Positions 6,909 to 41,900 are shown, numbered from the stretch's first letter. The stretch is DNA of 64,000 nt from Patescibacteria group bacterium (GCA_049322955.1 JBMOPU010000012.1:681517-745516), one strand, 5' to 3'. Made by a program: numbers and translations. Notes: generated by a model from the sequence alone, not told the origin.

Positions 6909-6914
6909 CTTATA

Positions 6915-14184: not shown

Positions 14185-14188
14185 ACGT

Positions 14189-17128: not shown

Positions 17129-17162
17129 CGATATCCCGTGGCTTGGGTATTATACCAGGCTA

Positions 17163-19190
17163 CTATGCAGTTTCGGAAAGCTCTGCGATGAGATCACGAA
17201 AACGAGCCGCCGTTTCGAAATCCAGATCCCTGCTCGCTTTGCGCATGAGTTTTGTATAGGTCGCTATTTTCTTTTTCTTATCGGCGGGGGTCATGGCGTC
17301 TTTTTCCTCCCGGGAGAGCGTTGCCGATTCATTCACCATTACGGCATCTTCCTTTTGTACGAGCCGTTCGCGAATGGGCTTCGAGATTGAGAGCGGGGTG
17401 ATATTGTGCGTTGCATTGTACGCAAGTTGTATCGTGCGACGCCTCTCGACTTCGCTCATTGCCGCCGCCATGGATTTGGTGACGGTATCGGCGTACAAAA
17501 TGACTCGGCCGTGCACATGTCGGGCCGCCCGCCCCATGGTTTGGATAAGACTCGTGCGACTGCGCAAAAATCCTTCTTTATCCGCATCAAGGACTGCTAC
17601 CAATGATACCTCAGGAAGATCAAGTCCTTCCCGCAGTAAATTGATTCCCACGACCACATCATACTTGCCCGCCCGGAGGTCAGCCAGGATATCGCTCCGT
17701 TCAAGGGTTAAGACGTCCGCATGCAGATAATGCACTTTTATGCCCCGTTCCTCCAGGAATTTCGCCAAATCTTCCGCCATGCGTTTGGTGAGCGTCGTGA
17801 CGAGCACCCGCTCATGTTTTTCGATTCGTTTATTGATCTCTCCCATCAAGTCTTCAATCTGTCCCTGACTTTTCCTTACTTCAATCTCAGGATCAACCAG
17901 CCCTGTCGGTCGGATGAGTTGTTCGACGATTGCCGTTTTCCCCGTTTGCGTCGTTACCCTATGGGTTTCCCACTCATCGGGAGTTGCGGACACATAGATA
18001 GTCTGCGGCATGCGCCGTTCGAACTCATCAAATTTGAGCGGACGGTTATCGATGGCGGCGGGAAGCCGGAAACCGTAATCGATAAGCGTTTGTTTTCTGC
18101 TTCGGTCACCCTGATACATACCGCGGATCTGCGGAATGGTCATATGAGATTCGTCGATTAAAAGAAGCCAGTCATTTTCGGGAGCGTTTCTCCGGACACT
18201 CGCTTCCTTAAAGTAATCAAGCAAAGAATACGGCGCTTCACCCGGCTTTCTGCCGTCGAAGTATCGGCTATAGTTTTCGATACCGTTCACGAATCCCACT
18301 TCCTGAATCATTTCAAGGTCGTAGGTGACGCGTTCTTTGATGCGTTGTGCTTCGATAAACTTATTCGCTTTGCGGAATGCCGCCACCTGTCGGTCAAGGT
18401 CATCTTGAATTTGGGCGAAAACGGATTTGTAGCTTTTCGGATCCGTCATATAGTGTTTGGCAGGATATACGACCAGTGCCGGCAAATCTTCAATCTTTTT
18501 CCCGGTTAACGGATCGCGTCGGTCAATGCTCAGAACGCCCTTTTCTCCCATGACGATACGGATACCCGTATCCTCATATGCCGGAAACACATCGATCGTT
18601 TCGCCGCGCACCCTGAATGCGCCGCGATGAAATCCGTAATCGTTCCGTTCGTACTGCAAATCGATGAGTCGCTCCATGATGCTTTCGCGGGTGACGGCGA
18701 CTCCCGGCTGTAATTCCAGTACAAAGTGACCGTATTCCTTGGGAGAGCCGATGTTGTAAATACACGAAACGGATGCCACCACGATCGTGTCGTTTCTGGT
18801 CAATAAATTGGTAGTTGCGGCAAGACGAAGCTTGTCGATTTCCTCATTTATCTCGGTTTCCTTTTCTATATAGGTATTGGTGGACGGAATATACGCTTCC
18901 GGCTGATAGTAATCGTAGTAGGAAACAAAATAGGAAACCGCGTTGTCGGGGAAAAAATCCCGGAATTCCTGATACAGCTGGGCGGCCAACGTTTTATTGT
19001 GCGAGATGATAAGCGTCGGTTTTTGGATCTTTTCTATCACTTTCGCCATCGTGTAGGTTTTGCCGCTTCCCGTCACTCCCAGAAGTATCTGTTCGGGAAC
19101 GTCGTTTTTCAGATTATCCAGCAATGCGGCAATTGCCTTCGGTTGATCGCCGGTCGGTTGAAATGCTGAGGTAAGGGTAAATTGCTTCAT
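17163..19190 (-). CDS. uvrB: Excinuclease ABC subunit B
   Basis: GVTGSGKT Walker A, helicase motifs and a C-terminal UVR domain. 675 aa. Confidence 0.95.
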   Translation of the reverse strand: MKQFTLTSAFQPTGDQPKAIAALLDNLKNDVPEQILLGVTGSGKTYTMAKVIEKIQKPTLIISHNKTLAAQLYQEFRDFFPDNAVSYFVSYYDYYQPEAYIPSTNTYIEKETEINEEIDKLRLAATTNLLTRNDTIVVASVSCIYNIGSPKEYGHFVLELQPGVAVTRESIMERLIDLQYERNDYGFHRGAFRVRGETIDVFPAYEDTGIRIVMGEKGVLSIDRRDPLTGKKIEDLPALVVYPAKHYMTDPKSYKSVFAQIQDDLDRQVAAFRKANKFIEAQRIKERVTYDLEMIQEVGFVNGIENYSRYFDGRKPGEAPYSLLDYFKEASVRRNAPENDWLLLIDESHMTIPQIRGMYQGDRSRKQTLIDYGFRLPAAIDNRPLKFDEFERRMPQTIYVSATPDEWETHRVTTQTGKTAIVEQLIRPTGLVDPEIEVRKSQGQIEDLMGEINKRIEKHERVLVTTLTKRMAEDLAKFLEERGIKVHYLHADVLTLERSDILADLRAGKYDVVVGINLLREGLDLPEVSLVAVLDADKEGFLRSRTSLIQTMGRAARHVHGRVILYADTVTKSMAAAMSEVERRRTIQLAYNATHNITPLSISKPIRERLVQKEDAVMVNESATLSREEKDAMTPADKKKKIATYTKLMRKASRDLDFETAARFRDLIAELSETA

Positions 19191-19238
19191 GTTCGGTTAA
19201 TTTTCTGTTTTGATATAGATATATCGGGTTTGAATGGA

Positions 19239-19266
19239 TTGACAGTTCGGTTATTTTTCGTAATAC
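19239..19266 (+). promoter_or_regulatory. Putative sigma-70-type promoter of lexA (TTGACA-16 nt-TAATAC)
   Basis: Near-consensus -35 and -10 hexamers with a 16-nt spacer, about 50 nt upstream of the lexA ATG. Confidence 0.45.
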
Positions 19267-19292
19267 TACGAATTATCGTAACATAGTTTCGG

Positions 19293-19310
19293 TTCCTGTA
19301 AATACAGGAA
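19293..19310 (+). promoter_or_regulatory. Perfect 18-bp palindrome TTCCTGTA-AA-TACAGGAA (CTGT-N4-ACAG core). Candidate LexA operator.
   Basis: Perfect inverted repeat of 8-bp arms located between the lexA -10 and its RBS. It shares the CTGT/ACAG half-sites with the E. coli SOS box but has a shorter spacer. Confidence 0.45.
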
Positions 19311-19317
19311 AACTAAT

Positions 19318-19941
19318 ATGCCAGCAATACTTTATCCGAGAGAACGCCAACTCCTTGATTTTATCACGCAATTTATCGGAAGGTTCGGGTATGCCCCGAC
19401 CCTGAAGGAGATCGGTGAAGCGTTAAATATTCATTCGCCCGCTACCGTGCATGAACACGTCGATCGACTTCGTCAAAAAGGATTTATCCGTAAGCTTGAC
19501 GGAACGGCACGGGGTCTGGAGGTCGTCGCGGAAAATTATAAACCCGCGGGACAAAATGCCACCATGGATTTGCCCGTTCTAGGCTTTATCGCGGCAGGTG
19601 CTCCTCTTGAGCCGTACACCGACCCGAATTTCTATATATCGGTAGCTCCTTCCATGATCGCTTCCAGCCAGCCGCATTACGTATTGCAGGTCAAAGGACA
19701 ATCCATGATCGATGACGGCATTTTTGATGGCGATTATGTCGTGATCCAACACCAGCAGGATGCAAAAAACGGCGACATTGTGGTAGCGCTTCTCCCGAAC
19801 GGCCTTGCAACCTTAAAGCGTATCTATTTTGAAAAAGACAAAATAAAACTCATGCCGAGCAATTCCACCATGTCTCCCATATTTACCACGCATGTCAAAA
19901 TCCAAGGACGATGTGTGGGACTTATCCGAAAATTCGTGTAA
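19318..19941 (+). CDS. lexA: LexA repressor (S24 peptidase)
   Basis: N-terminal winged HTH. Ala-Gly cleavage region (FIAAGAPLE). Ser and Lys catalytic dyad context (VKGQSMIDDGI ... LKR). Confidence 0.85.
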   Translation: MPAILYPRERQLLDFITQFIGRFGYAPTLKEIGEALNIHSPATVHEHVDRLRQKGFIRKLDGTARGLEVVAENYKPAGQNATMDLPVLGFIAAGAPLEPYTDPNFYISVAPSMIASSQPHYVLQVKGQSMIDDGIFDGDYVVIQHQQDAKNGDIVVALLPNGLATLKRIYFEKDKIKLMPSNSTMSPIFTTHVKIQGRCVGLIRKFV

Positions 19942-19944
19942 CCG

Positions 19945-20670
19945 TTATTGTCGGGGGTATATCGTGAGCGGAGATTCGGATTTTACCGTCCTTCCGTTTT
20001 GCACATCCCGTGATACCACGCTTCCGGGATAAATGGTGCAATACTCACCTATTTTTGTCCCCGGCAAGACACCGCTGTGCATGCCGATGGAGGTGTGCGC
20101 GCCGATGATCGCACCGAATTTCCCGTCAACCGGTTCAAGAGTTCCCTGGAAGAGTGAAGCGATACGTCTGCCGCGCAGATTATATCCCGTTAAGACATCT
20201 CCCGCGGTTATTTCCACCCATGGTGCCACCACGGAATCACCGACAAAGCTGTGATGCGTCGTCGTATCATGTCCGATGGTGCTTCTTACGACCTCGCTCA
20301 TGGCACCGATGACACAGTGGCGACCGATTATGCTCGATCGAACGAGTGAATGATCACCTATTTCCGCCCGGTCTGCGATGCATACCGGACCGACAATATG
20401 GGCATACGGATGGATCACGACGTGATGGCCGATATGTACATTTCCGTCGATTATAGCCGTGGGATGAATACGTGCGGACCGTTCAATATGGGGTGTGACA
20501 ACTCTTGATTCAAGAATGTGTGAAAAGAAGCGAATCGTCTCCCAAGGGCGACGAAATTCAACCCGTGCGTCTTCTTTATCGCGTAATGCCGCGGGAACGA
20601 CAGAAAGCAGTGACCGACGGAGCGGCCACATATCCTTAGTCCAATGAGAAAAGCGATCCGGCAAAGCCAT
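19945..20670 (-). CDS. Left-handed beta-helix (hexapeptide-repeat) acyltransferase-family protein
   Basis: Multiple [LIV]-G-x-x-x-x hexapeptide repeats (IGHHVVIHPYAHIVGPVCIADRAEIGDHSLV...). GlmU/LpxD C-terminal-like. Confidence 0.6.
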   Translation of the reverse strand: MALPDRFSHWTKDMWPLRRSLLSVVPAALRDKEDARVEFRRPWETIRFFSHILESRVVTPHIERSARIHPTAIIDGNVHIGHHVVIHPYAHIVGPVCIADRAEIGDHSLVRSSIIGRHCVIGAMSEVVRSTIGHDTTTHHSFVGDSVVAPWVEITAGDVLTGYNLRGRRIASLFQGTLEPVDGKFGAIIGAHTSIGMHSGVLPGTKIGEYCTIYPGSVVSRDVQNGRTVKSESPLTIYPRQ

Positions 20671-20724
20671 CCGCGCATTATAGGGGAATGAGATGATGAG
20701 GGCAATCCGAAGGACGAAAAACGA

Positions 20725-21411
20725 TTACTCGTTGACGACCTTTTCAAGCTTCTTGGTGGACACGCCGGGAACATCCGGGTGCCGTTTGTTTTGGATGTAT
20801 TCGTAAATCATCGGAATAATCGAGAGTCCGATGATCGCAAATACCGCATAGTGAAAGTTTTCCTTAATAAACTCCATGTTGCCGAAGAAATATCCGAGCA
20901 ACGTAAAAATCGCGACCCACAATACGCCCCCGACGATGTTATAGGTGATAAACGTCGAGTAATGCATGGATCCCACTCCCGCCACAAAGGGGGCAAACGT
21001 ACGGACAATCGGCACAAAACGAGCCAGAATAATCGTTTTTGCCCCGTGCTTTTTATAAAACTGTTCTGTCTTGTCGATGTGCTCCTGATTGATGAGGGTA
21101 ATTTTGGGATTATCGACGATTTTCCGTCCGAAGAAGTGCCCGATCCAGTAATTAACCGTATCCCCCGCAATTGCCGCCACCATAAGGAGGGCAAGCATAA
21201 ACCAGACATTCAGCGATCCTAACGCGGCAATAGCACCCGCCGCAAACAACAGAGAATCACCGGGGAGAAACGGCGTCACCACAAAACCCGTCTCGGCAAA
21301 TACGATAAGGAAAAGAATCCCGTAGGTTAACGCCCCGTATTGATTGACGAGGTCGGTAAGATGCGTATCCAGGTGCAACATGACATCAAGAAAAGAAGTG
21401 AGTAGTTCCAT
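20725..21411 (-). CDS. DedA/SNARE-associated family membrane protein
   Basis: VTPFLPGDSLLFAAGA DedA signature. Several TM helices. Confidence 0.8.
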   Translation of the reverse strand: MELLTSFLDVMLHLDTHLTDLVNQYGALTYGILFLIVFAETGFVVTPFLPGDSLLFAAGAIAALGSLNVWFMLALLMVAAIAGDTVNYWIGHFFGRKIVDNPKITLINQEHIDKTEQFYKKHGAKTIILARFVPIVRTFAPFVAGVGSMHYSTFITYNIVGGVLWVAIFTLLGYFFGNMEFIKENFHYAVFAIIGLSIIPMIYEYIQNKRHPDVPGVSTKKLEKVVNE

Positions 21412-21442
21412 AAGAGATATATAGTATCACGAGAATGGTACA

Positions 21443-22171
21443 ATGTACCACATGGGAACCTTATCGATCGTCGCCACCCCAATAGGCAACCTGGAAGATA
21501 TTTCTCTTCGCGCACTCAAAGTACTCTTTACCGCTGATGTCATTGCGTGCGAAGACACAAGACGGGCAGGATCGCTACTGCATGAGCTCGGCGTTCGCTA
21601 TCCGGAAGTGCTTATTGCTCTGGGGATTGATGCCGCCAGAACACCCCGTTTTATACGCTATGATGATCATACCGAACAACAGGGTGCGCCGGAAATCATC
21701 GCACTCGTGGAAAACGGTAGCGATGTGGCCCTTATTTCCGATGCCGGCACGCCGCTCATCAACGATCCCGGATATGTGCTCGTCAATGCGGCAAGAAAAA
21801 GAGGTATCCCCGTCATCGGGATTCCGGGTGCGTCCGCAATTCTCACCGCACTGACCGTTTCCGGCCTTCCCGCCAATACCTTTACGTACCTCGGGTATCC
21901 TCCCGAAAAACAAGGTAATCGGGTCAGGTTATTGCACTCGCTTAAGGAAATCGCCACAAAAGAGCCGACGACGTTTGTTTTTTACGTGTCACCGCATAAA
22001 CTTTCGGGTATGCTCGCGGACATGGACGAGGTATTCGGAGAATCGCAGGGTATTACCGTGGCACGGGAACTTACGAAACGGTACGAAGAGGTATGGACGG
22101 GATCCGTGAAAGACGCACAAACACACTTTGCCGAACCCAAAGGTGAATTTGTTCTCCTGTTTCGCCGCTAA
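21443..22171 (+). CDS. rsmI: 16S rRNA (cytidine1402-2'-O)-methyltransferase
   Basis: LSIVATPIGNLEDISLRALKVL...CEDTRR is the tetrapyrrole-methylase-fold RsmI N-terminus. Confidence 0.8.
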   Translation: MYHMGTLSIVATPIGNLEDISLRALKVLFTADVIACEDTRRAGSLLHELGVRYPEVLIALGIDAARTPRFIRYDDHTEQQGAPEIIALVENGSDVALISDAGTPLINDPGYVLVNAARKRGIPVIGIPGASAILTALTVSGLPANTFTYLGYPPEKQGNRVRLLHSLKEIATKEPTTFVFYVSPHKLSGMLADMDEVFGESQGITVARELTKRYEEVWTGSVKDAQTHFAEPKGEFVLLFRR

Positions 22172-23898
22172 TAATCTTCGAGGGTTGACGTATCGCCGAT
22201 CGGAAGTCCCAATTCCTTTGCTTTGAGGATTCTGCGCATAATTTTTCCCGATCGGGTTTTGGGGAGTTTATCGATAAACTCGATTTCCCGGGGATACGCG
22301 TGCCCCGCCAAATGCTTTTTGACATAGACCGAAAGCTCCTCTTTAAGGGCGTCCTGCTGTGCTTTGGTTGAGGCCTTTTTCAGGGCCTCTTTCTCGAGGA
22401 CGACAAATGCTTTGATGATCTCGCCGCGCATGACGTCGGGTTTGCCGATGACTCCCGCTTCAACGACAGCTGGATGCGCGACAAGTGCCGATTCCACTTC
22501 AAACGGACCCACCCGTTCTCCCGAGGTTTTAATCACATCATCCGCTCTCCCGATAAACCAGAAGTAGCCGTCCTTGTCCTTCATACCCCGGTCGCCGCTT
22601 ATGTACCAGCCTTTGGTAAAATAGCTTTTGTATTTGTGCGGTCGCTTCCAGATGGTGTGCATGATCGAAGGCCACTTCGGCTTTAAGGCGATATTGCCCT
22701 CGGTATTTATCGGTAATTCATTTCCTTTGTCATCGACGATAGCGGCAGTCAGCCCCGGAATAGGCTTGCCCATGGAACCGATTTTCATGTCCATAGAGGG
22801 ATAATTGGCAATACAGATAGCACCCGTTTCCGTCTGCCACCAGGTATCATGAAAAGGCATGCCGAATGCCTTCAAACCCCAGCGTATCGCTTCGGGATTA
22901 AGCGGTTCTCCGACGGAGCAAAGATGCCGAAGGTGGGAAAGGTTATGCTTATTGACTAAGTCGGTGCCGGCGGCCATGAGCATACGAATGGCGGTGGGTG
23001 CCGTGTACCAGACTGTGACGTTGTATTTGTCCAACAGCGCGTACCAGCGATCGGGGTCAAATCGTCCGGCGTACACGAGCGCGGCTACCCCGTTGCTCCA
23101 ACTCCCCAATATTTCATACGCAATCCCCGTTACCCATCCGGGATCGGCGGTACACCAGTAGGTGTCGTCATCCCGAAGGTCCAACACCCAATGTGCCGTC
23201 ATGTGTTCCTGGATGATCGCCCGATGGGAATGTACCACTCCTTTCGGCTTGCCTGTCGTTCCGGAGGTGTACAGCATGAATGCATAATCATCGGGATCGG
23301 TTTTGGCGATACGAAGCTCATCGGATGCCGCCGCAAGGCTTTTTGCAAACGAAGGTTCGTCAACGACGATAATGTGCGCAAGTTCGGGAAGCTTTTTTTT
23401 GATTTTATCGACGCGTGGCTTGAGATCACTCGTGGTAATCAACACTTTGGCCCCGGAATTTTCCAAACGATCGCAAAGTGCCTGTTCCTGAAAGGCGCTA
23501 AACAGCGTCCCGGCGATTGCACCGATTTTTAAGATACCCAGGAAGCTGAAGTAGAGTTCCGGAACACGCGGCAGGAACAGAAAAACCCTATCTCCCCGCT
23601 CGACGCCGAAGTCTTTGAGGATATTGCCCATTTTGTTTGAAAGGAGCGAAATATCCTCAAACGTATATTTTTTCTCATTCCCTGCTTCATCTTCCCAAAA
23701 GAGCGCTACTTTGTTTTTTCGCCAGGTGGCCACATGCCTGTCTATCGCGTTATACGCCGCATTCAGGCCGCCGTCCACCCAATCGAGGGCGCGCCGAGCG
23801 TCTTTCCACGAGAAGCTCGCCGCCGTCTTGTCATAATCCTCAAGATTCGGCGGAAAAGCGCCCGTTCCTTTTGGTTTCTTATAGAGCTCTTCCTTCAT
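22168..23898 (-). CDS. AMP-forming acetyl-CoA synthetase-like acyl-CoA ligase
   Basis: YTSGTTGKPKGV AMP-binding motif and an ACS-like C-terminal domain. 576 aa. Confidence 0.8.
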   Translation of the reverse strand: MKEELYKKPKGTGAFPPNLEDYDKTAASFSWKDARRALDWVDGGLNAAYNAIDRHVATWRKNKVALFWEDEAGNEKKYTFEDISLLSNKMGNILKDFGVERGDRVFLFLPRVPELYFSFLGILKIGAIAGTLFSAFQEQALCDRLENSGAKVLITTSDLKPRVDKIKKKLPELAHIIVVDEPSFAKSLAAASDELRIAKTDPDDYAFMLYTSGTTGKPKGVVHSHRAIIQEHMTAHWVLDLRDDDTYWCTADPGWVTGIAYEILGSWSNGVAALVYAGRFDPDRWYALLDKYNVTVWYTAPTAIRMLMAAGTDLVNKHNLSHLRHLCSVGEPLNPEAIRWGLKAFGMPFHDTWWQTETGAICIANYPSMDMKIGSMGKPIPGLTAAIVDDKGNELPINTEGNIALKPKWPSIMHTIWKRPHKYKSYFTKGWYISGDRGMKDKDGYFWFIGRADDVIKTSGERVGPFEVESALVAHPAVVEAGVIGKPDVMRGEIIKAFVVLEKEALKKASTKAQQDALKEELSVYVKKHLAGHAYPREIEFIDKLPKTRSGKIMRRILKAKELGLPIGDTSTLEDY

Positions 23899-25037
23899 TT
23901 GGCAGTATCATCACGCTTGACGAATTTGGCATCCAGACGCTTCAGGTTCTCCATTACGCCCGTGTATTCCATTTCATCCTGAGGTCCCATGGCCGGATTA
24001 AAGAATCCCTGCTCACGCATGGCAAGGGTCTTTTCCGTCGCTTTCTCACGGATGACATCCCAGAACGGCTGGTCAAACAAATCAACCGCCTCCGTGAGTT
24101 TGCCTTCATGGACACAGTATCCGGCGGCGGACATGATTGTCGGTCCGTCAAAAAACGAGATGATCGAATTCTGCTTTACCGGCATGACGGCCACATGGTG
24201 TGATCCGCGATTGTCGCCCAGCGTATATTGCGCGAGTGCCCACGGAGAAAGTATCTCCCCCGTTGAAGGGAATTGTTTCTGGCTTCGCACGATCGCTACG
24301 GGGTCATCTTTTCCGACATATTTGCCCGCGATATTATGAAGCCTGCTCGTTGAGGCAACCGCGGCGGTAAGGCCCGATGCGTTTTCAACAACGGACGCGA
24401 TGATATAGCGATTGGGATCACGGAGTAAGCATGCGATATCATAGTAATCCTGTGGAACCTTCAAGGTAATCACCTTGTCATGCTCGGTGTGGTTCACATC
24501 CATGATGGTGAATGTAAATCCCGCCTGCATGTCGGGAGCAAGAAGAAGGCCGGCATTGTGATACGGGTCGGCAAATGCGGAAAAAAGTGCATGGTTAAAT
24601 ACACCCGGTCCGCATTTGTCACCGGCAAAAACGATAAACGGCTCTGCGGCGCGTTCCTCAATTTCCATTTCGGCGCTTCCCGGTCCCATACCGCGCACAT
24701 TGCCGGAAAATGCATCCTTGAGTAAATCCTGTCCCGCACCGTACAACCCCTGACTCTTGGCAATTTTGGTGGTTTCGACAAAGGTATCCCATGCGAACTT
24801 ATGAACATCACTGTTGTCCGTTCCGCGGGAATGCGTCATGGTGAGGGCGATATCATCACCCGTAAAGGTCACGTTGGCATCAAGAAGAAGCCCGCTTTTT
24901 ATGGCTTCATCAACACGTTCTCTGGCTTTTGCCAGCATTGCATCACTCGGGCGATTGTGTCCGCCTATGGAACCGGTATCCGCTTTAATAACTGAAATGG
25001 TCACTTTCATGGTGTGACCTCCTTTCTCTATAAACAA
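23895..25037 (-). CDS. fbp: Bifunctional fructose-1,6-bisphosphate aldolase/phosphatase (class V, archaeal-type FBPase)
   Basis: MKVTISVIKADTGSIGGH N-terminus. About 380 aa. High similarity by eye to the FBP aldolase/phosphatase family. Overlaps gpmI by 10 nt. Confidence 0.8.
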   Translation of the reverse strand: MFIEKGGHTMKVTISVIKADTGSIGGHNRPSDAMLAKARERVDEAIKSGLLLDANVTFTGDDIALTMTHSRGTDNSDVHKFAWDTFVETTKIAKSQGLYGAGQDLLKDAFSGNVRGMGPGSAEMEIEERAAEPFIVFAGDKCGPGVFNHALFSAFADPYHNAGLLLAPDMQAGFTFTIMDVNHTEHDKVITLKVPQDYYDIACLLRDPNRYIIASVVENASGLTAAVASTSRLHNIAGKYVGKDDPVAIVRSQKQFPSTGEILSPWALAQYTLGDNRGSHHVAVMPVKQNSIISFFDGPTIMSAAGYCVHEGKLTEAVDLFDQPFWDVIREKATEKTLAMREQGFFNPAMGPQDEMEYTGVMENLKRLDAKFVKRDDTAK

Positions 25038-26662
25038 TCCGCTAATAAATTTTTTCCCGTCATTTCATTTGGAATAGGAAGCCCCAGTGCCGCTAAAATC
25101 GTCGGGGCAATATCGGCAAGCTTTCCCGTTGGAAGCTTAAGCGGCTGATTTTCGAATCGTTTGTCAATCATGATGCAAGGCACCGGAAACATAGAATGCT
25201 CGGTATCCATTTCTCCCCCGGGTCCGAGCATTTCTTCAACGTTACCATGATCCGCCGTAATCATGCAAGAGCCCCCCATGGAGAGCGCCAGCGAGGTGAT
25301 TTTTCCGACACACTCATCGGTTACTTCGCATGCCTTAATCCCCGCGGAAATATTGCCGGTGTGTGCCACCATGTCGGGATTGGCAAAGTTTATCGCGATA
25401 AACGAATAGACGTTACTCGTCATCCGATCAATCACATGATTCGTCAGCTCCACCGCGGACATGGAAGGTTGCAAATCATACGTGGCCACCTTGGGGGAAG
25501 GCACGATCAATCGGTCTTCCTGTGGAAACGGTACCTCACGCATTCCGTTGAAGTAATAGCCGATAAACCGTTCTTTTTCCGTTTCGGATACCCGTAATTG
25601 GCGAAGCCCCGCTTCCGAAAAAACCTGCCCGAGTGTTTTGGTAATCTGATTTAAGGGATACGCAACGACGCACGGACTGGGTCGCTCATATTCCGTCATG
25701 GTGACGAAGAATAATTCCGGCAGTACGATAGTACGGACAAAAGGACGTTTTCTGCTGTCTTCTTCGATGACATGTTTATGATAATACTTCACCGCATACG
25801 GATCGAAGCTTTCCGTCGGATTGTATGTTTCAAAATTCGGGAGGGTAAAGGCACGGGTAAGCTGTCGCGGTCTGTCGATGCGATAGTTATAGAAAATCAC
25901 GGCATCATGGGCGGTGATGCGAGGGTACGCGTTGCCGTTGTGATCGGTGAGGATAACAGGCTCGATAAACTCGTCGGTAATCCCCTTCTTATAACTTGCG
26001 TCAATCGCTTCTGCGGCGGATTTTGCTTTAGAGGGGATATCCTCGGTAAGTGCCTGATACGCTCGCGCCGTCCTGTCCCATCGCCGATCCCGATCCATGG
26101 CGTAATATCGCCCCATGATGGTGGCGACATGCGTGTTGTTGCACTGCGCCAGTTTGGCTTCTACTTCCCGAATGAAGCGAATCCCCGACTTCGGGGGAGA
26201 ATCTCTGCCGTCGGTGAAAAGATGCAGATAAACTGGGCGGGTGCACTGATTCCGTTGCATCAGATCGAGGAGAGCATAGAGGTGGTCACGACTTGCATGG
26301 ACGCCGGAATCAGAAAGCAAACCCATGAGGTGAATATTCGACTGGTGTGAGGTGGCATAATGGATCGCCCCCAAAAATGCGTCGTTGGTAAAGAAACTTC
26401 CGTCCTTGATGGTCATATTTATCCGCGGAAGATCCTGGTAGACAACCCGACCCGCACCGATGTTGATGTGCCCGGTCTCCGTGTTGCCGTCTTCTCCCGG
26501 CGGCAAGCCCACCGCTTCCTGTGAGGCGTCAAGCTGTGTGTGGGGAAACGAATTCCAGAGTCTCGGGATGTGCGTCAGCTTCGCTTGTGAGATAGCGTTG
26601 CCCGGACCGGGAGGGGCAAGACCCCATCCGTCTAAAATAATGAGCACGAAAGGCTTACCCAT
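25028..26662 (-). CDS. gpmI: 2,3-bisphosphoglycerate-independent phosphoglycerate mutase
   Basis: FVLIILDGWGL N-terminus and metalloenzyme-domain motifs. 544 aa. Confidence 0.9.
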   Translation of the reverse strand: MGKPFVLIILDGWGLAPPGPGNAISQAKLTHIPRLWNSFPHTQLDASQEAVGLPPGEDGNTETGHINIGAGRVVYQDLPRINMTIKDGSFFTNDAFLGAIHYATSHQSNIHLMGLLSDSGVHASRDHLYALLDLMQRNQCTRPVYLHLFTDGRDSPPKSGIRFIREVEAKLAQCNNTHVATIMGRYYAMDRDRRWDRTARAYQALTEDIPSKAKSAAEAIDASYKKGITDEFIEPVILTDHNGNAYPRITAHDAVIFYNYRIDRPRQLTRAFTLPNFETYNPTESFDPYAVKYYHKHVIEEDSRKRPFVRTIVLPELFFVTMTEYERPSPCVVAYPLNQITKTLGQVFSEAGLRQLRVSETEKERFIGYYFNGMREVPFPQEDRLIVPSPKVATYDLQPSMSAVELTNHVIDRMTSNVYSFIAINFANPDMVAHTGNISAGIKACEVTDECVGKITSLALSMGGSCMITADHGNVEEMLGPGGEMDTEHSMFPVPCIMIDKRFENQPLKLPTGKLADIAPTILAALGLPIPNEMTGKNLLADCL

Positions 26663-27938
26663 GCGTAAATAGCTCCGATTCTATCTGGAGCAATCGATTG
26701 TATTTCGCAACCCGCTCTCCCCGTGCGGGAGCACCGAACTTCACGTAGTCTGATTGAACTCCTACGGCCAGATCGGCAATAAATGCATCGTTCGTCTCCC
26801 CGCTCCGGTGCGAGACAATGGTTTTGATGCCCGCCTGTTTGGCAATGGCGATAACGGCAAAAAATTCGGAAAGGGAACCGATCTGATTGGGTTTGGCAAG
26901 AATCGCCGAACACACCTTTTCGGTAATTGCGCGTTTCAACCGCTCGGGATTCGTCGCCAATAAATCATCGCCTACGACTAATACGTCATTCCCGATCTGG
27001 CGGGAAAGATCGTCCCAACTATCCCAATCATCTTCGCTTAACGGGTCCTCCAAAATTAATAGGCGATATTTCTTATGAAGCTCCATGAGATACTTAATAA
27101 AGTCGCTACTATTGAGGGGCGTGGGCTTATCTTTGATCTGATACCCTCCCCGATCATGCTTAAAGCTGTTCGCGGCGAGGTCCAATCCGAAAAATATGTC
27201 CACTCCGAAAATATAGGGAGAAGTTTTGATTGCTTCGGCGAGAATTTTTAGGGCGTCCAGGTTTGTGAAAAGGTTAGGGGCAAAACCCCCTTCGTATCCC
27301 ACGGCGTAGACGGCATTTCTATATTTGAGTATCTGCATCACCTGCTTATAAATAGCAACACCCATCTCTAAAGCCTGAGAAAACGATTTATTCGATGCGG
27401 GCACGACATGAAATTCCTGAAAATCCAAATTTCCCGAGCCGTGTTTGCCCCCGTTTATGACGTTAAACGTCGGGGTGGGAATTCTCGCCATGGGAGATGC
27501 GACAAACGGCGTAAAGAGTTCGTTGATATAGCGGTACAAAGGAATTCTCCGGGCATTGGCCGCCGCGGATGCCGTTGCAAGCGATACTCCCAATATGCTG
27601 TTAGCTCCCAGTACGTGTTTATCAGGTGTCCCGTCGAGGTCCAAGAGCGCTTTATCAAGCGCGGCCTGGTTTAAGGCATCCATACCTTTTACCGTGGTTG
27701 CAATGGTGCCGTTGACATGCGAAACGGCTTTTAAAACTCCCATACCGCCGTACCGCTTGGGATCTTTGTCCCGAAGCTCTACCGCTTCATATTTCCCGAG
27801 ACTAGTTCCCGCAGGAACGCTCGCTATACCACGGTAGCCGCTTTCCAGGATAACCATCACCTCAATAGTCGGATCGCCGCGAGAATCAAGAATTTCGCGG
27901 GCAATAACGGAATGAATACGGGTACTTACCTGTGTCAT
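26655..27938 (-). CDS. eno: Enolase (start assigned to the internal Met). The six-frame ORF extends a further 62 codons upstream across the ppsA stop.
   Basis: MTQVSTRIHSVIAREILDSRGDPTIEV enolase N-terminus. SIEDP and catalytic Lys regions. 427 aa from the ATG at 27938. Confidence 0.9.
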   Translation of the reverse strand: MTQVSTRIHSVIAREILDSRGDPTIEVMVILESGYRGIASVPAGTSLGKYEAVELRDKDPKRYGGMGVLKAVSHVNGTIATTVKGMDALNQAALDKALLDLDGTPDKHVLGANSILGVSLATASAAANARRIPLYRYINELFTPFVASPMARIPTPTFNVINGGKHGSGNLDFQEFHVVPASNKSFSQALEMGVAIYKQVMQILKYRNAVYAVGYEGGFAPNLFTNLDALKILAEAIKTSPYIFGVDIFFGLDLAANSFKHDRGGYQIKDKPTPLNSSDFIKYLMELHKKYRLLILEDPLSEDDWDSWDDLSRQIGNDVLVVGDDLLATNPERLKRAITEKVCSAILAKPNQIGSLSEFFAVIAIAKQAGIKTIVSHRSGETNDAFIADLAVGVQSDYVKFGAPARGERVAKYNRLLQIESELFTHG

Positions 27939-27946
27939 AACGGTGT

Positions 27947-30214
27947 TTATTTTTTCGTCACGAAGCGGTGCTCTGCGGCGGCAACCGTCGCTCTCACATG
28001 ATCGACCGCATCGGCATTGACGGATACGCTGGTTATCCCCCAAGAGACAAGCTTTTCGACCAGTTCCGGGTAGTCCGAGGGTGCCTGTCCGCACATGGAG
28101 GTGGTGACGCCTTCCTTTGCACACGCCTTTATTACCTTTTCAAATGCCCACATCACGGAAGGATCCTGCTCGGAAAAATCATGGGCAACTTCGCTATTGT
28201 CCCGATCGGTTCCCATGGTCAACATCGTTAAATCATTACTTCCTATGGACACCCCGTCGATACCGACTTTCAGAAAATCCTCAATGCGGATAACGTTCGT
28301 GGGAATCTCCACCATCATCCACAATTTGAAGGTGCTGGAACGCGAAAGTCCGCTCGCCGCCACCATCTTTTTTACTTCCATGAGTTCCTCAGGGGTTCTC
28401 ACAAACGGAATCATGATCCACAGATTTTTAAGACCCATTTTATTCCGTACCGTCTTGATTGCTTCAAGTTCAAGCTCAAATACCTGCGGATCGGCAATAT
28501 AGCGTGCCGCGCCCCGGAATCCCAACATCGGGTTCGGTTCCTCCGGCTCAAACGCTGTTCCTCCCTTAAGATTGCGATATTCGTTTGTCTTAAAATCCGT
28601 CGTTCGATACACCACCGGACGGGGAGAAAACGCCTCCGCTATGGTGGCGATTTGTCCCGCCACAACGTCGATAAACATCTGTTGTTTTTTGTCGGCAATA
28701 ATCTTTTTGGGATGGATTCCGACGCTCGCCATGATAAATTCGGCACGAAGGAGTCCCACACCGTCGGCATGGAGCTTGGCCACTTCCGCGGCTCTCCCTG
28801 CTTGCGCCAGATTCATATATACTTTGGTTGCCGTTTTTATCCGTTCGGCGGGTTTGACGATAGCAGGCGCACCGGTCGCGACCTTCACGGCACCCTTGTA
28901 TATTTCGCCGTTAGTGCCGTTCACCGTGATCACCATACCGTCCTTGACCGTCTTAAGGACACCGGTAGTTCCCACAACCGCGGGGATACCCAACTCACGC
29001 GAAACGATTGCGGCGTGAGAGGTACGGCCGCCACGCTCCGTTACGATGGCAACCGCTTTTTTCATGGCGGGCACAAAGTCGGGGTTCGTCATTTGGGCTA
29101 CCAACACATCCCCCGGGTGGACTTTCCCCAAATCTTTGGGGCTATAAAGAATCTGTACAGGACCGCTGGCAAGCCCCGGACTGGCGGCATCGCCTTTCAA
29201 AAACACTTCCTGTTTGGTAACGGGTAACTGCTGACGGTTCACCGTCGACTTAATGGTCGTCACCGGCCTGGTTTGAACAATATAAAGCTTGCCCTTTTCG
29301 ATCGCCCACTCAATATCCTGCGGGAAGAAATAATGTTTCTCCAAACGTTTGCCGAGCCGGGCAAGACCAAGAATCTGTCCGTCGGTCAGTTTTGCCTGAG
29401 AACCTTTCGCTTTCGGAATCGGGGTAATAAGGGTCTTCGTGCCGTGTTTGGTCATGATCTTTTCCTGCGTATTGACCTCTTTTTCGATAATTTTTTCGTC
29501 CGCTTTATCAACCACATAATGGTCGGGGGTAACGGCACCCTGGACGATCATTTCACCGAGGCCGTAAATGGCGTCAACCACCACTTTGGTTTTGTCGTTC
29601 GTGACGGGATCAATCGTGAACATAATGCCCGAATAATCGGACTGCACCATGCGTTGTACCGGAACGGCGATCCCGACTTTAAAGTGATCAAACTTGTGGG
29701 TGGCACGGTAGAATATCGCACGATCGGTGAAAAGCGATGCCCAGGCTTCTTTTACTTTTTCAAGTAAATTTGCTTCTCCCAACACATTAAGAAACGTTGC
29801 CTGTTGTCCCGCAAATGACGCTTCCGGCAGATCCTCGGCGGTTGCGGATGATCGTACGGCGACAAGCGCATGCTTTTTCAGTAATCCCGTATCCATGGTA
29901 AAATACGCGCGCATCACCTCATGAGCGATATCTTCGGGAAACCGGGATTTCATGATAAGCGAACGGATAGCTTTTCCCGCCTCTGCCAATTTCTTACTAT
30001 TACTGACGTCCAGGCCGTGCAGGAGATCAGCAAGATCATCACGAAGATGTGCTTCGTCGAGGAAATGGAAGTATGCCTGTGCGGTGACGATAAAACCGTT
30101 GGGCACGGGGAACCCAGCCTTCGTCATTTCGCCTAAATTGGCACCCTTGCCTCCTACAATTCCTATGTCACCCCGATCAACGTCCTTAAACCATACGACA
30201 AACGGTTTGGTCAT
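27947..30214 (-). CDS. ppsA: Phosphoenolpyruvate synthase (pyruvate, water dikinase)
   Basis: N-terminal ATP-grasp-like nucleotide-binding domain, central phospho-His domain (GGRTSHAAIVSRELGIPAVVG) and C-terminal PEP-utilising TIM barrel. 755 aa. Confidence 0.85.
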   Translation of the reverse strand: MTKPFVVWFKDVDRGDIGIVGGKGANLGEMTKAGFPVPNGFIVTAQAYFHFLDEAHLRDDLADLLHGLDVSNSKKLAEAGKAIRSLIMKSRFPEDIAHEVMRAYFTMDTGLLKKHALVAVRSSATAEDLPEASFAGQQATFLNVLGEANLLEKVKEAWASLFTDRAIFYRATHKFDHFKVGIAVPVQRMVQSDYSGIMFTIDPVTNDKTKVVVDAIYGLGEMIVQGAVTPDHYVVDKADEKIIEKEVNTQEKIMTKHGTKTLITPIPKAKGSQAKLTDGQILGLARLGKRLEKHYFFPQDIEWAIEKGKLYIVQTRPVTTIKSTVNRQQLPVTKQEVFLKGDAASPGLASGPVQILYSPKDLGKVHPGDVLVAQMTNPDFVPAMKKAVAIVTERGGRTSHAAIVSRELGIPAVVGTTGVLKTVKDGMVITVNGTNGEIYKGAVKVATGAPAIVKPAERIKTATKVYMNLAQAGRAAEVAKLHADGVGLLRAEFIMASVGIHPKKIIADKKQQMFIDVVAGQIATIAEAFSPRPVVYRTTDFKTNEYRNLKGGTAFEPEEPNPMLGFRGAARYIADPQVFELELEAIKTVRNKMGLKNLWIMIPFVRTPEELMEVKKMVAASGLSRSSTFKLWMMVEIPTNVIRIEDFLKVGIDGVSIGSNDLTMLTMGTDRDNSEVAHDFSEQDPSVMWAFEKVIKACAKEGVTTSMCGQAPSDYPELVEKLVSWGITSVSVNADAVDHVRATVAAAEHRFVTKK

Positions 30215-30257
30215 ATGACCAGTATGGGTAATTTTTGCAAAAATCGCAAGTGCTATA

Positions 30258-30926
30258 ATGCACGATATGCGAAAAGCAATACTTTTTGATATGGACGGGG
30301 TTATCGCCCACAGTGAAACGCTGTGGAATGAGCGGGAACCCGATTTGCTGAGAGAAATCCTCCCCGCATCTGCCGCTGATACGATTATCGGAAATACCCG
30401 CGGTCTTTCGGAAAGCCTTATCTACGAATGGGCAAAAAAATTAGGATATAGCGGAACCAGAGAAACCTTTTATGGTAAGTATGACCGTCTCGCACAAAAA
30501 ATATATGCGGAATGTGCTCTCACGCCGGGTATGGATGATCTATTCGGGGAATTGAAACAATCACAGGCATCAATAGGATTGGTATCTTCATCCCCTATGG
30601 ATTGGATCACCATCGTATTACACCGTCTCAAAAACCGGGATGTATTCCGTTTCATAGAATCGGTCAATGCGCACCCCGAGCTACGCCCAAAGCCCGCACC
30701 GGACGGGTATATCGCGGCCATGAAGGCGTTAAACGTACTCCCTCATGATACGCTTATTGTCGAAGACTCCCAAACGGGGATCAATGCGGCGGTGTCAGCG
30801 GGTGCCAACGTGTGTTGTTTTGCCCTTCATGTCGACAAACAGAAACTGCCTACGGGTGTTACCCAGTACGCCCATACCATTCAGGAGCTGAAAAGCGCTT
30901 GCATGGCCTTTCTTGCCCCCCGATAA
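30258..30926 (+). CDS. HAD-IA family hydrolase (beta-phosphoglucomutase-like)
   Basis: LFDMDGVI motif I and VEDSQTGI motif IV. Confidence 0.7.
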   Translation: MHDMRKAILFDMDGVIAHSETLWNEREPDLLREILPASAADTIIGNTRGLSESLIYEWAKKLGYSGTRETFYGKYDRLAQKIYAECALTPGMDDLFGELKQSQASIGLVSSSPMDWITIVLHRLKNRDVFRFIESVNAHPELRPKPAPDGYIAAMKALNVLPHDTLIVEDSQTGINAAVSAGANVCCFALHVDKQKLPTGVTQYAHTIQELKSACMAFLAPR

Positions 30927-30932
30927 ATGCTT

Positions 30933-31850
30933 TTACCGGTTCGCGGGTACAATCACCTCAAATTTCTCCGGCTTACCGTAGGCTTTCGGACCGTAATCGT
31001 TACAAAACTGCTCAATGTGTTGCATGAAATAGTCGGGCTTCACCTTTTGAATCTGCCCGCACAAGTAATACGTAAGCGCGATGACGGTACCGAAACTTGC
31101 CGTAGCGCCAAGCGGGATATCCCAGCGGTGGGCAGGGTGGCCGAAGTATTTGTTTTCACTGCCCAAGGTGATCACCAATTCATGTTCCCACGGATGGACA
31201 AATTTAGCATGTCGGGCATGACCTTGCGGAAACGCGCGAATCATAACGTGCGGTCCGAATAATTCGTCTCCTTTTATTTCGACCATAGGCCCGACGTTGA
31301 GGTACGCATCGGGGAGCACAAACGTGTACGTCTGATATTCGGAAAAACCGGGAGGAAGTGAGATACCGTTTATACATGTCTTTATATCTTCCGCTTTTTC
31401 TCCCGTTGCGGATAATACCATCCCCAGATACGTTGAGGTGTTGTACGTATACGGCTCTGCAATGCTTTTGTACGCGTACACTTTGTCGGCGATACCTGCC
31501 CCGGTTGAATTCGGCTTGCAGGTCAACAAGGTTGTTCTTAGCTTCATATCCCGCGAAAGTTCGAGTTCCCACACCGAATCTTTTTCACCCGAGGCGGAGA
31601 TGATGACCGCATCGGTGATAAGTCCCTTTTCAATGACCGGCTTGTAGGCTTCTGCAATCGCACGAAAATTACTTTCATCGGCAAATATGGCCGCTTTTCC
31701 CGAAAATAAAATTTTGCCCGTATTAATTGCATTGCCGCTCCCGACGACAAAAGGAAGCGAATAGGCACTGATATCAAGGGCGGGGGGCGGTGTTTTTGTA
31801 AAAAAATCCAACGCTTCCAAAACGATCGTATCCAATGTCGGAATGTTCAT
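30933..31850 (-). CDS. Hypothetical protein, possibly an SIS-type sugar-phosphate isomerase
   Basis: About 305 aa, Gly-rich VVGSGNAINTGK loop. Sits between the gluconeogenic operon and the ManA/PMM genes. Assignment is speculative. Confidence 0.35.
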   Translation of the reverse strand: MNIPTLDTIVLEALDFFTKTPPPALDISAYSLPFVVGSGNAINTGKILFSGKAAIFADESNFRAIAEAYKPVIEKGLITDAVIISASGEKDSVWELELSRDMKLRTTLLTCKPNSTGAGIADKVYAYKSIAEPYTYNTSTYLGMVLSATGEKAEDIKTCINGISLPPGFSEYQTYTFVLPDAYLNVGPMVEIKGDELFGPHVMIRAFPQGHARHAKFVHPWEHELVITLGSENKYFGHPAHRWDIPLGATASFGTVIALTYYLCGQIQKVKPDYFMQHIEQFCNDYGPKAYGKPEKFEVIVPANR

Positions 31851-31862
31851 AGCAACCCCTTT

Positions 31863-33050
31863 CTAATATGAAATAAGTATTTCGGTATCGGCAACCGTCG
31901 CGCTGACTTTGTACGATCCGCACCCTGCGGGAACAAACACCGAGTGACCCATAGTTACGGTAACGGGCAGTTCATTTGCCGTGACGACGACGGCTCCCGC
32001 CCTGACAAATATATGCCGGAAGGTGTCCATGGTCGAATCAAACATCGCTCCCGGTTTCGTGAAGCTCACCCGATCCATAGAATAGTACTTACTTTCCAAA
32101 ATCAGATCATGCGTATAGGCGTCCGTTTTTGCAACCGATTTTGCCTGACGCATATGGGTTTTCGGATCGTTTGCCTCAGGACTTCTGTCTGCGTAAGTAA
32201 AGTACTCGGCTATCTGTAACGGACGAAGCGTTCCGTCTTTCGACATTTTCCCCTTGTCAAAACTCCGCAGTGTCGCCACGTTATCCATGACATTGAGCTG
32301 AATCTCATACAACACGTTCCCCAAAGGAATACTCGCAAGATCTTCCTCCCAGGAGTGATGGATACCGCAGGGCGAAAGGTCGATAAGCGTTCCTTTTTCT
32401 ACCCGGACGACATTGACGTATTGCCAGGGGTTCGCGTCTTTGACGAGCTGACTGATTATCTCGGACGCCTCCTCGTACGAAAGGGACCCTTCGCGAACCC
32501 GTGCGGCGACAAGTTGCATCTCTTTGTCGAGTTTGGTGACCGCACCCTGATATGACTCCCATGAAACTCCCGTTTTGATACCGCAGGTAATAATGCCGGG
32601 CTCAAAGTAATACCAGGATTCTGGCTTGGGCTTCCAATGGTCATTTTTCACCCCGTCGGGGACATGCAGTTGAAATGAATTGCCCAATGCCTGGGTAAAT
32701 TTCAACAGTAAATGCATCGTTGAGCCGTACGTACGAACGATGCGCTTTCCCAACACCGCCACCGCATCCTGTGAGATGAGCGCCGACAGGGCTACGCTGT
32801 TGGGGACGACTGATTGCTGTTCAACCGACTTGGTATCGGCTATTTCCCCCTGAAATTGCGGATCTTGGGAACTTATTAACAGCGACAGATTGCTTTTATC
32901 GTAAAGTTCATACGATTGCCCGATTTTTTTGCCGGCGACGTTTGTTGCGTTCTGCCATTTTTTAGATTCGGCGATGTACGTTCCGCCCCAAGTCGGCTGT
33001 TCAATAAGCTTTGGAATAACAAGATACGGACGAAGTTGTTTTGTATCCAT
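31863..33050 (-). CDS. Mannose-6-phosphate isomerase class I-like cupin protein
   Basis: N-terminal PTWGGTY block resembles the type I PMI (ManA) PxWGG motif. About 395 aa. Confidence 0.45.
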   Translation of the reverse strand: MDTKQLRPYLVIPKLIEQPTWGGTYIAESKKWQNATNVAGKKIGQSYELYDKSNLSLLISSQDPQFQGEIADTKSVEQQSVVPNSVALSALISQDAVAVLGKRIVRTYGSTMHLLLKFTQALGNSFQLHVPDGVKNDHWKPKPESWYYFEPGIITCGIKTGVSWESYQGAVTKLDKEMQLVAARVREGSLSYEEASEIISQLVKDANPWQYVNVVRVEKGTLIDLSPCGIHHSWEEDLASIPLGNVLYEIQLNVMDNVATLRSFDKGKMSKDGTLRPLQIAEYFTYADRSPEANDPKTHMRQAKSVAKTDAYTHDLILESKYYSMDRVSFTKPGAMFDSTMDTFRHIFVRAGAVVVTANELPVTVTMGHSVFVPAGCGSYKVSATVADTEILISY

Positions 33051-33057
33051 AGGATGG

Positions 33058-34473: not shown

Positions 34474-34482
34474 AAAACCTCC

Positions 34483-38237: not shown

Positions 38238-38264
38238 AACTCGCCTTTCCTGCCAAATGAAGTG

Positions 38265-38420
38265 AAACAAAATACCCCGCCAAGCGGGGTGAAGTTTTTC
38301 CCTACTGTTTGGCAAATCATTCCTCGCGAAGCGAGGACTCGTTGGGGCACCGCAGGTACATTTCCTCGGTTGCCGGATGGTTCACAGAGCGAGATCTCTC
38401 CCCACCACTCTTGATTTATT
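38265..38420 (-). ncRNA. SAM-I (S-box) riboswitch with intrinsic terminator in the metK 5' leader
   Basis: The leader reads AUCAAGAGUGGUGGGGAGAGA...CCGGCAACC...GGUGCcccAAcgagUCC...GAAUGAUUU. This matches the SAM-I P1/P2/P3/P4 conserved blocks. It is followed by the CCCCGC-UUGG-GCGGGG hairpin plus UAUUUUGUUU. Confidence 0.75.
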
Positions 38421-38499
38421 TACTTACTGACCAAGGTACTCTTTCTTCCGTTTATATGTCAAGAGATAATCAATGTTTGTTTACATATAACAATAAAAT

Positions 38500-39038: not shown

Positions 39039-39039
39039 A

Positions 39040-41891: not shown

Positions 41892-41900
41892 ATCTCTAGC

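Follow-up and report, generated by a model that had tools for sequence, protein, structure and literature searches.

A stretch of 64,000 nucleotides from a Patescibacteria group bacterium (GCA_049322955.1, JBMOPU010000012.1:681517-745516; referred to throughout, at its full length, as the window) carries on its minus strand, between positions 22168 and 30214, five contiguous head-to-tail open reading frames (ORFs) in the order ppsA-eno-gpmI-fbp-acs. These encode phosphoenolpyruvate (PEP) synthase, enolase, cofactor-independent phosphoglycerate mutase, a bifunctional fructose-1,6-bisphosphate (FBP) aldolase/phosphatase (FBP A/P) and an AMP-forming acetyl-CoA synthetase. The stretch derives from a member of the Candidate Phyla Radiation (CPR), Candidatus Gottesmanbacteria. 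The reading favoured here, with moderate confidence, is that the region constitutes a vertically inherited, operon-like anabolic (gluconeogenic) module that makes hexose phosphates from C2/C3 acids.

The original prediction had placed five minus-strand genes at these positions and named their products. The ORF list bears this out, as do profile searches in which all five proteins match their own families along their full length. PpsA (27947..30214, 755 aa) is a phosphoenolpyruvate synthase (pyruvate, water dikinase) which scores 962 bits against NF005057 (cutoff 598) and 917 bits against TIGR01418 (cutoff 740). It possesses the Pfam domains PPDK_N, PEP-utilizers and PEP-utilizers_C, with the PPDK model reaching merely 197 bits, and its translation contains the phosphohistidine motif GGRTSHAAI and a C-terminal MCGQ. 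Enolase (Eno; 26655..27938, 427 aa) matches TIGR01060 with 506 bits (cutoff 300) and has both Enolase_N and Enolase_C domains, while GpmI (25028..26662, 544 aa) matches TIGR01307 with 582 bits (cutoff 331) and comprises iPGM_N and Metalloenzyme domains. Acs (22168..23898, 576 aa) scores 844 bits against NF003313 (cutoff 729). Its closest match is a 572-aa bacterial-type acetyl-CoA synthetase (PDB 9g79, 712 bits), and in alignment it keeps the acetate pocket of S. enterica Acs (V310, T311, V386 and W414) together with the A10 motif PKTRSGK.

The identity of the fbp product (23895..25010) is central to any reading of the cluster. It had been assigned to the FBPase class V family, and a match to that family is indeed found, PF01950 scoring 502 bits (cutoff 25) over profile positions 1-360 of 361. 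NF041126 gives 503.3 bits, narrowly below its strict equivalog cutoff of 520, which is consistent with a divergent clade as judged from sequence; no other family matches. The protein aligns end to end with the S. tokodaii (3r1m, 328 bits) and T. neutrophilus (3t2b, 325 bits) enzymes. Residues D11, H18, D52, D53, Q95, D132, K133, Y229, K232, D233 and D234 of 3t2b are all identical in the window protein, which carries the motif GKYVGKDDP. These positions include the Schiff-base lysine (Lys232), the catalytic tyrosine (Tyr229) and the Mg-binding Asp/His/Gln residues. The catalytic motif is thus intact, and bifunctional, unidirectional activity is predicted.

The five-gene order is conserved within the lineage. 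A scan of species-representative genomes yielded 24 loci with an FBP A/P 77-99% identical to that of the window, along with nine distant bacterial loci at 45-57%, and window proteins were compared with all loci by tblastn. Nineteen loci contain complete ppsA-eno-gpmI-fbp-acs runs on one strand, and truncated loci agree as far as they reach. This order is found in species-level genomes whose proteins have diverged down to 50-57% identity. Median gaps across the loci are 12, 6, 15.5 and -4 nt; the overlap between fbp and acs, ATGA, recurs in 15 of 23, and in one locus (L022) a gap of 627 nt precedes acs. The best 120 FBP A/P homologues are 81-92% identical to the window protein, and those that are named belong to Patescibacteria or Candidatus Gottesmanbacteria. 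The cluster was not found at the nine non-Gottesmanbacteria loci, at a WWE3 locus, at another Patescibacteria locus or in the closest outgroup by identity. In pairwise comparisons FBP A/P diverges in step with its four neighbours (r = 0.75-0.91), and it evolves more slowly than any of them, with a mean pairwise identity of 85.8% versus 66-79% for the others. This co-divergence, together with the low divergence of FBP A/P, indicates that the block has been vertically inherited within the lineage under strong constraint. Chance adjacency of the five genes was also considered and is ruled out by their conservation across 19 genomes.

In the closest genome, L001, the corresponding region (window positions 19318..34473) presents a mosaic. 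Identity is 100% for lexA, 99% for dedA, 99% for fbp and 98% for the phosphohexomutase gene, falling to 66% for a hexapeptide transferase, 72% for rsmI and 79% for a gene resembling phosphomannose isomerase (PMI). This pattern suggests recombination between related lineages.

The genes are tightly packed. The TAA of ppsA is followed, after a gap of 8 nt, by the eno ATG at 27938. The mechanical eno ORF extends 62 codons farther upstream, to 28124, across the ppsA stop; because the TIGR01060 alignment begins at residue 8 of the enolase, the start is assigned to ATG 27938. Both the extension and this start had been anticipated. eno and gpmI overlap by 8 nt (ATGGGTAA), the gpmI start lying within the end of eno, and fbp and acs overlap by 4 nt, the acs ATG being superimposed on the fbp TGA in the sequence ATGA. 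The sole strong Shine-Dalgarno (SD) sequence within the cluster, AAGGAGG (25018..25024, minus strand), lies 7 nt from the fbp ATG at 25010. An AGGAGG-type SD precedes fbp in about 19 of 23 related loci, in which eno, gpmI and acs are mostly without one. Pfam and PDB alignments of FBP A/P begin at the methionine of ATG 25010, and the same SD-ATG arrangement is kept in relatives; as judged from these alignments, fbp most likely starts here and not at TTG 25037. The gap between gpmI and fbp would then be one of 17 nt. Thus, of the junctions of 8, 8, 10 and 4 nt claimed initially, the 8-nt gap, the 8-nt overlap and the 4-nt overlap stand, whereas the 10-nt overlap of gpmI and fbp requires the TTG start and probably gives way to the 17-nt gap. 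Eno, gpmI and acs would be translated by coupling, through the 8-nt gap, the 8-nt overlap and the ATGA respectively, and fbp from its own strong SD.

A promoter-like element lies directly upstream of ppsA (30221..30249, minus strand). It consists of TTGCGA (30249..30244), a 17-nt spacer ending in AAATTACC, and CATACT (30226..30221), which is followed after 6 nt by the ppsA ATG. The element was found solely through comparison of loci: upstream alignments reveal the architecture CTTGCG-N13-AAATTnCC-CATACT-N6-ATG in about 18 of the 24 Gottesmanbacteria loci, whatever the upstream gene. A generic sigma-70 scan of 21000..35000 returned promoter counts at or below the shuffled expectation, and missed the element because merely 8 of 12 consensus positions match. 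Pattern searches found no other gene start in the window with a -10-N6-ATG of the ppsA type. The conserved architecture suggests a putative promoter giving a leaderless ppsA mRNA. Four loci (L014, L015, L016 and L018) lack the element, and in them an upstream gene for a bifunctional phosphoglucose/phosphomannose isomerase (PGI/PMI) is followed, with an AGGAGG, by ppsA. A 12-nt palindrome, TTTTTGCAAAAA (30232..30243), lies within the spacer of the window element but is not kept in L001.

Terminators dividing the gene run would have spoken against a single transcription unit, and none is found above chance: a scan of 21000..35000 gave 17 terminators against 16.7 expected from shuffles, no excess, and the junctions are too short to house one or an independent promoter. 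The only hairpin at a junction, a terminator-like structure between eno and gpmI, was rejected as no better than shuffles (z = 0.06). Rfam searches identified no riboswitch, leader or other family in the cluster region, and only six tRNAs in the whole window. The five genes share a strand, are joined by junctions of +8, -8, +17 and -4 nt, lack a terminator signal, keep their order among relatives and are preceded by a promoter-like element; from these features we infer that they are probably carried on one mRNA. Transcription would start from TTGCGA-17-CATACT, 6 nt before the ppsA AUG, and read, leaderless, through all five genes.

In the proposed route, Acs would activate acetate to acetyl-CoA, which pyruvate synthase, encoded elsewhere, would carboxylate to pyruvate. 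PpsA would convert pyruvate to PEP, and Eno and GpmI would take PEP to 3-phosphoglycerate. Phosphoglycerate kinase (PGK), glyceraldehyde-3-phosphate dehydrogenase (GAPDH) and triose-phosphate isomerase (TPI, or TIM), likewise encoded elsewhere, would yield triose phosphates, which FBP A/P would condense and dephosphorylate irreversibly to fructose-6-phosphate. An isomerase (PGI/PMI, or a PMI-like protein together with a double-SIS protein, SIS denoting the sugar isomerase fold) and a phosphohexomutase, encoded by the genes upstream of ppsA described below, would then convert fructose-6-phosphate to sugar-1-phosphates for envelope and nucleotide-sugar synthesis. Seven co-directional genes thus fall along a single linear path leading from acetate to hexose-1-phosphate, and it is for this reason that an anabolic module is favoured; the direction in which PpsA and Acs run, and the existence of the missing steps elsewhere in the genome, are inferred. 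With FBP A/P, gluconeogenesis becomes a one-way process, and PEP synthase too has been treated as unidirectional (PMC12525153). PGK, GAPDH and TIM have been reported for Gottesmanbacteria (PMC6389311). The gluconeogenesis set used in PMC12525153 comprises PEPS/PPDK, ENO, PGM, PGK, GAPDH, TIM, FBPA plus FBPase or the bifunctional enzyme, PGI and PGLM; in the window are PEPS, ENO, iPGM, the bifunctional FBPAase, PGLM and candidate isomerases, while PGK, GAPDH and TIM are not.

Several observations weigh against the favoured reading. Pyruvate synthase, PGK, GAPDH and TPI were not found in the cluster, in the 64-kb window or in the 10-kb flanks of any locus. The Eno and GpmI reactions are reversible, and these enzymes also have to support the catabolism of 3-phosphoglycerate derived from the RuBisCO/AMP pathway reported for the lineage. 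In L011, a complete genome, acs is replaced by an opposite-strand gene for a 724-aa fused ADP-forming acetyl-CoA synthetase (ACD; L011 11133..13307, minus strand), and the presence of this enzyme in the place of acs leaves room for the acetate step to be catabolic. ADP-forming acetyl-CoA synthetase normally makes acetate and ATP. L019 is without gpmI in the cluster, eno being followed directly by fbp (L019 400..3109). Finally, in L014-L016, where gaps reach up to 139 nt, eno carries its own TATACT-N6-ATG element, from which it follows that transcription-unit boundaries differ among relatives, though the gene order is kept. The claim that a pyruvate-to-hexose module is packaged as one transcription unit is therefore upheld in part. 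The packing and the direction-specific character of PpsA and FBP A/P support it, whereas the module is incomplete, two of its enzymes are reversible and Acs falls outside gluconeogenesis. The more general expectation, that the cluster is informative about the carbon metabolism of the organism, is supported.

An alternative, distinctly less probable though a serious competitor, is that the genes form an amphibolic hub serving mainly fermentation. In such a scheme 3-phosphoglycerate derived from RuBisCO and AMP would pass down through GpmI and Eno to PEP, and PpsA and, after pyruvate:ferredoxin oxidoreductase, Acs would both run in reverse for ATP (PEP + AMP + Pi -> pyruvate + ATP; acetyl-CoA + AMP + PPi -> acetate + ATP), with FBP A/P only tapping triose phosphates. 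The reversibility of Eno and GpmI agrees with this, as does the ADP-forming enzyme at the acs position of L011. Each reversal has a precedent, that of PEP synthase in Thermococcus kodakarensis and that of AMP-forming Acs in Syntrophus aciditrophicus. Moreover, about 91% of Gottesmanbacteria genomes encode form III-c or III-like RuBisCO together with deoA and e2b2 (PMC6389311). Yet these two rare reversals would be needed together, and PEP synthase is generally treated as unidirectional (PMC12525153). The amphibolic path, furthermore, accounts for merely four of the seven co-directional genes, FBP A/P, PGI/PMI and the phosphohexomutase being anabolic, and the most conserved junction in the cluster is the one that couples the strictly gluconeogenic FBP A/P to Acs. 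As the L011 ACD gene lies on the opposite strand, it is outside the unit.

It is improbable that the cluster instead serves a Calvin-Benson-Bassham-like cycle, a possibility floated by Jaffe et al. in which FBP A/P would act as a triple FBP aldolase, FBPase and sedoheptulose-bisphosphatase (SBPase) alongside phosphoribulokinase (PRK) and RuBisCO. Some Gottesmanbacteria do possess PRK and a near-complete set for this cycle, lacking only SBPase, and FBP A/P there replaces separate FBP aldolase and FBPase enzymes (PMC6389311). In the window, however, RuBisCO, PRK, transketolase, ribose-5-phosphate isomerase and ribulose-phosphate 3-epimerase were not found, the conserved partners of fbp are enzymes of lower glycolysis, acetate activation and hexose-phosphate metabolism rather than of the pentose-phosphate pathway, and the cycle is called uncertain by its own authors.

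The anabolic module, as favoured here, is taken to be vertically inherited, and this bears on an idea raised at the outset, that fbp had crossed between domains. FBP A/P is viewed as an enzyme family typical of archaea, its transfers to bacteria being restricted (PMC12525153), and lateral acquisition has been suggested by Jaffe et al. (PMC6389311). The phylogeny that had been called for, a neighbour-joining tree of 59 sequences with 100 bootstraps, places the Gottesmanbacteria proteins in one monophyletic group (bootstrap 100) on a long stem. None of the five genes differs from the flanks in GC content, GC3 or codon usage, and FBP A/P co-diverges with its neighbours. Its identity to archaeal enzymes (44-48%) is not above that to bacterial ones (44-57%); by group, the values are 46-48% for crenarchaeal enzymes, 45% for Bathyarchaeota, 44-57% for other bacteria, 47% for WWE3 and 44% for another member of the Patescibacteria. 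Full-length 50% clusters of the family are few, and ten of them, once named, come from Deltaproteobacteria, Bathyarchaeota, WWE3 and Patescibacteria. Acs, for its part, is nearest to a bacterial-type enzyme. A solitary FBP A/P gene in the CPR group WWE3 (L040, JABHGP010000009.1; 47% identical) is located among uvrC, uvrA, uvrB, lexA and a DedA/VTT gene, which matches the broader gene context at 11051..21411 of the window, and adjoins a gene of PF01182 (glucosamine/6-phosphogluconolactonase isomerase family). This shared uvrABC-lexA-dedA neighbourhood hints at long residence of fbp in the CPR. Composition, monophyly, co-divergence and identities thus give no signal of a recent event, and a recent inter-domain transfer of fbp, or of the whole cluster as an archaeal gene island, is very unlikely. 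The deep nodes of the tree lack resolution, so that it points to no donor, whether archaeal or bacterial, and an ancient transfer of fbp may have taken place.

Upstream of ppsA on the same strand are holA, then a phosphohexomutase gene, then a slot whose content varies among the loci. The phosphohexomutase (33058..34473, minus strand, 471 aa; PMM/PGM/GlmM family) is encoded by the first sugar-phosphate gene of the co-directional run. It contains PGM_PMM domains I-III and scores 362 bits against PgmG and 290 bits against Arch_GlmM, both below the equivalog cutoffs. In 14 loci the slot is filled by a gene for a 357-aa SIS-type bifunctional PGI/PMI, co-directional with that of the phosphohexomutase; in six others, the window among them, the occupants are genes for proteins of 395 and 305 aa. 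The two arrangements never co-occur.

The 395-aa protein (31863..33050, minus strand) is a divergent, CPR-wide cupin resembling class I mannose-6-phosphate isomerase, with a weak, sub-threshold match to PF21621. In its AlphaFold2 (AF2) model, which has a predicted local distance difference test (pLDDT) score of 93.1, Foldseek detects as the best matches the PMI structures 1qwr (E 1.6e-20, TMt 0.80) and 3h1m; other cupins trail class I PMI by ten orders of magnitude. The 305-aa protein (30933..31850, minus strand) is unannotated and is predicted from AF2 and Foldseek to adopt a double-SIS phosphosugar-isomerase fold. Its model (pLDDT 93.8) aligns with the isomerase domain of GlmS, NagB-II and an archaeal GlcN6P deaminase at E of about 1e-10 and TMq of 0.5-0.65. 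At the level of sequence it has no match in Pfam, NCBIfam or PDB, and profiles of the SIS and PGI/PMI families do not recover it; PDB searches with the 305-aa and 395-aa proteins, both as single sequences and as a profile, returned no matches. A comparison by hhalign of the 305-aa family with the Gottesmanbacteria PGI/PMI alignment gave a probability of 0.8%, that is, no sequence relation. The family alignment does contain an invariant loop, S85-A-S87-G88-x-K90-D91-S92, which resembles in sequence the SxSGxT phosphate loop. The family comprises 1,922 hits across the CPR (Parcubacteria, Moranbacteria and Microgenomates), all called hypothetical, and the window member is more than 60% identical to those of Moranbacteria and Parcubacteria, where the homologues (L034-L039) adjoin ManC, PGM/PMM and nucleotide-sugar genes. 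We regard the 305-aa protein as a candidate hexose-phosphate (or hexosamine-phosphate) isomerase that has so far escaped recognition.

These candidates allow a bolder version of the anabolic reading, which must be considered speculative and rather unlikely as a whole. Central carbon metabolism in Gottesmanbacteria would be strictly bottom-up and archaeal in style, hexoses being built and never split, with a supercluster of phosphohexomutase, isomerase, PpsA, Eno, GpmI, FBP A/P and Acs as its core. The 305-aa protein would be a new phosphohexose isomerase which, together with the divergent PMI, replaces PGI/PMI in the clade of the window. If true, this would fill a gap in metabolic reconstructions of the CPR with a new type of isomerase, drawn from a hypothetical family of about 1,900 members.

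Directly before ppsA, the co-directional run is interrupted by a divergently oriented gene (30258..30926, plus strand) for a sugar phosphatase or beta-phosphoglucomutase-like protein of the haloacid dehalogenase (HAD) type IA (HAD_2, 87 bits; HxpB and bPGM below cutoff). This inverted position is found elsewhere solely in L001 and L011, and in L011 the gene adjoins that of PGI/PMI. The mechanical start of the HAD gene at 30258 overlaps a perfect TATAAT (30254..30259), and an ATG at 30267 lies 7 nt past this motif. The latter (MRKAILFDMDG) is the likely start, and the HAD gene may also be leaderless.

The components of the cluster are all known kinds of enzyme. To these the analysis adds a lineage-specific, conserved arrangement, a leaderless-type promoter-like element and two divergent candidates for isomerases. 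In Bacillus and clostridia the gapA operon, cggR-gapA-pgk-tpi-pgm-eno, is likewise a central-carbon operon with a gpmI and eno pair. There, however, pgm precedes eno and the pair is joined to GAPDH, PGK and TPI of the reversible trunk, whereas in the window eno precedes gpmI and the pair is joined to irreversible gluconeogenic enzymes and Acs; the trunk enzymes of the gapA operon are exactly those missing from the window cluster. In anaerobic autotrophs such as methanogens, gluconeogenesis takes in acetate by way of Acs and pyruvate synthase and ends with FBP A/P. The window shares with these organisms, in which AMP-forming PEP synthase leads on to PGK (PMC12525153), the types of Acs, PEP synthase and FBP A/P, and most of its relatives share the bifunctional PGI/PMI. 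Unlike in those organisms, the window genes are clustered in a bacterial host, with no pyruvate synthase found nearby and an Acs of the bacterial 572-aa type. The T. neutrophilus and S. tokodaii enzymes (3t2b and 3r1m; Say and Fuchs 2010) are full-length homologues of the window FBP A/P, at 325-328 bits and 46-48% identity with identical catalytic positions. The host of the latter differs in being a CPR bacterium, probably mesophilic, with relatives from groundwater and sediment metagenomes, and in having fbp within a five-gene cluster.

A putative bifunctional FBP aldolase/FBPase has already been reported in most Gottesmanbacteria (Jaffe et al. 2019, PMC6389311). It is of the same family and lineage as the window enzyme, which is 77-99% identical to its counterparts in 24 Gottesmanbacteria-like genomes. 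The discussion there links the enzyme to RuBisCO, PRK and a potential Calvin-Benson-Bassham cycle; the present analysis contributes the cluster and its promoter-like element. As the bifunctional enzyme is also fixed in several bacterial phyla (PMC12525153), the description of this module as unusual for bacteria was overstated. The conserved cluster itself appears to be undescribed so far. The main text of PMC6389311 makes no mention of enolase, PEP synthase, acetyl-CoA, operons or synteny, and literature searches returned nothing on the cluster, other CPR papers giving generic statements of pathway completeness.

CPR bacteria are usually portrayed as fermentative symbionts with patchy glycolysis. 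The Gottesmanbacteria block unites two irreversible gluconeogenic enzymes with acetate activation and hexose-phosphate interconversion, and FBP A/P changes most slowly within it. This indicates strong selection in the lineage for building sugar phosphates out of small acids or triose phosphates. It provides a testable unit for metatranscriptomics and for enzyme biochemistry, the latter called for by Jaffe et al., and brings to light two divergent sugar-phosphate isomerase candidates that are missed by current annotation pipelines. The picture of the FBP A/P family itself is unchanged.

At its downstream end the cluster meets rsmI (21443..22171, plus strand), which converges on acs and is overlapped by the acs stop by 4 nt. 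Just beyond are two minus-strand genes with envelope-precursor functions. One encodes a DedA-family protein (20725..21411), whose weaker matches include models of the undecaprenyl-phosphate transporter UptA. The other (19945..20670) encodes a stand-alone left-handed beta-helix acetyltransferase which is like the C-terminal half of the archaeal GlmU-type enzyme and is found only in the window and L001. A CofD-family protein (PF01933, 291 bits) is encoded at 9594..10631 on the minus strand; the family includes YvcK, the Bacillus ‘gluconeogenesis factor’.

GC content is about 0.50 across the window except at 1..4000 (0.33-0.39), which holds QueC-like, TatD and NERD nuclease genes, and at 38001..40000 (0.415), between metK and the gene of a dinB-type polymerase. 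At 41046..43529 (minus strand), a gene for a leucine-rich-repeat protein adjoins that of a 542-aa protein carrying the N-methylation motif of type IV pilins, and a 359-aa Zeta-toxin-domain protein is encoded at 49518..50597 (plus strand). The six tRNA genes comprise a Val-Phe-Gly-Gln cluster at 6278..6909 (plus strand), plus Glu and Lys genes at 55325..55399 (minus strand) and 62972..63044 (plus strand).

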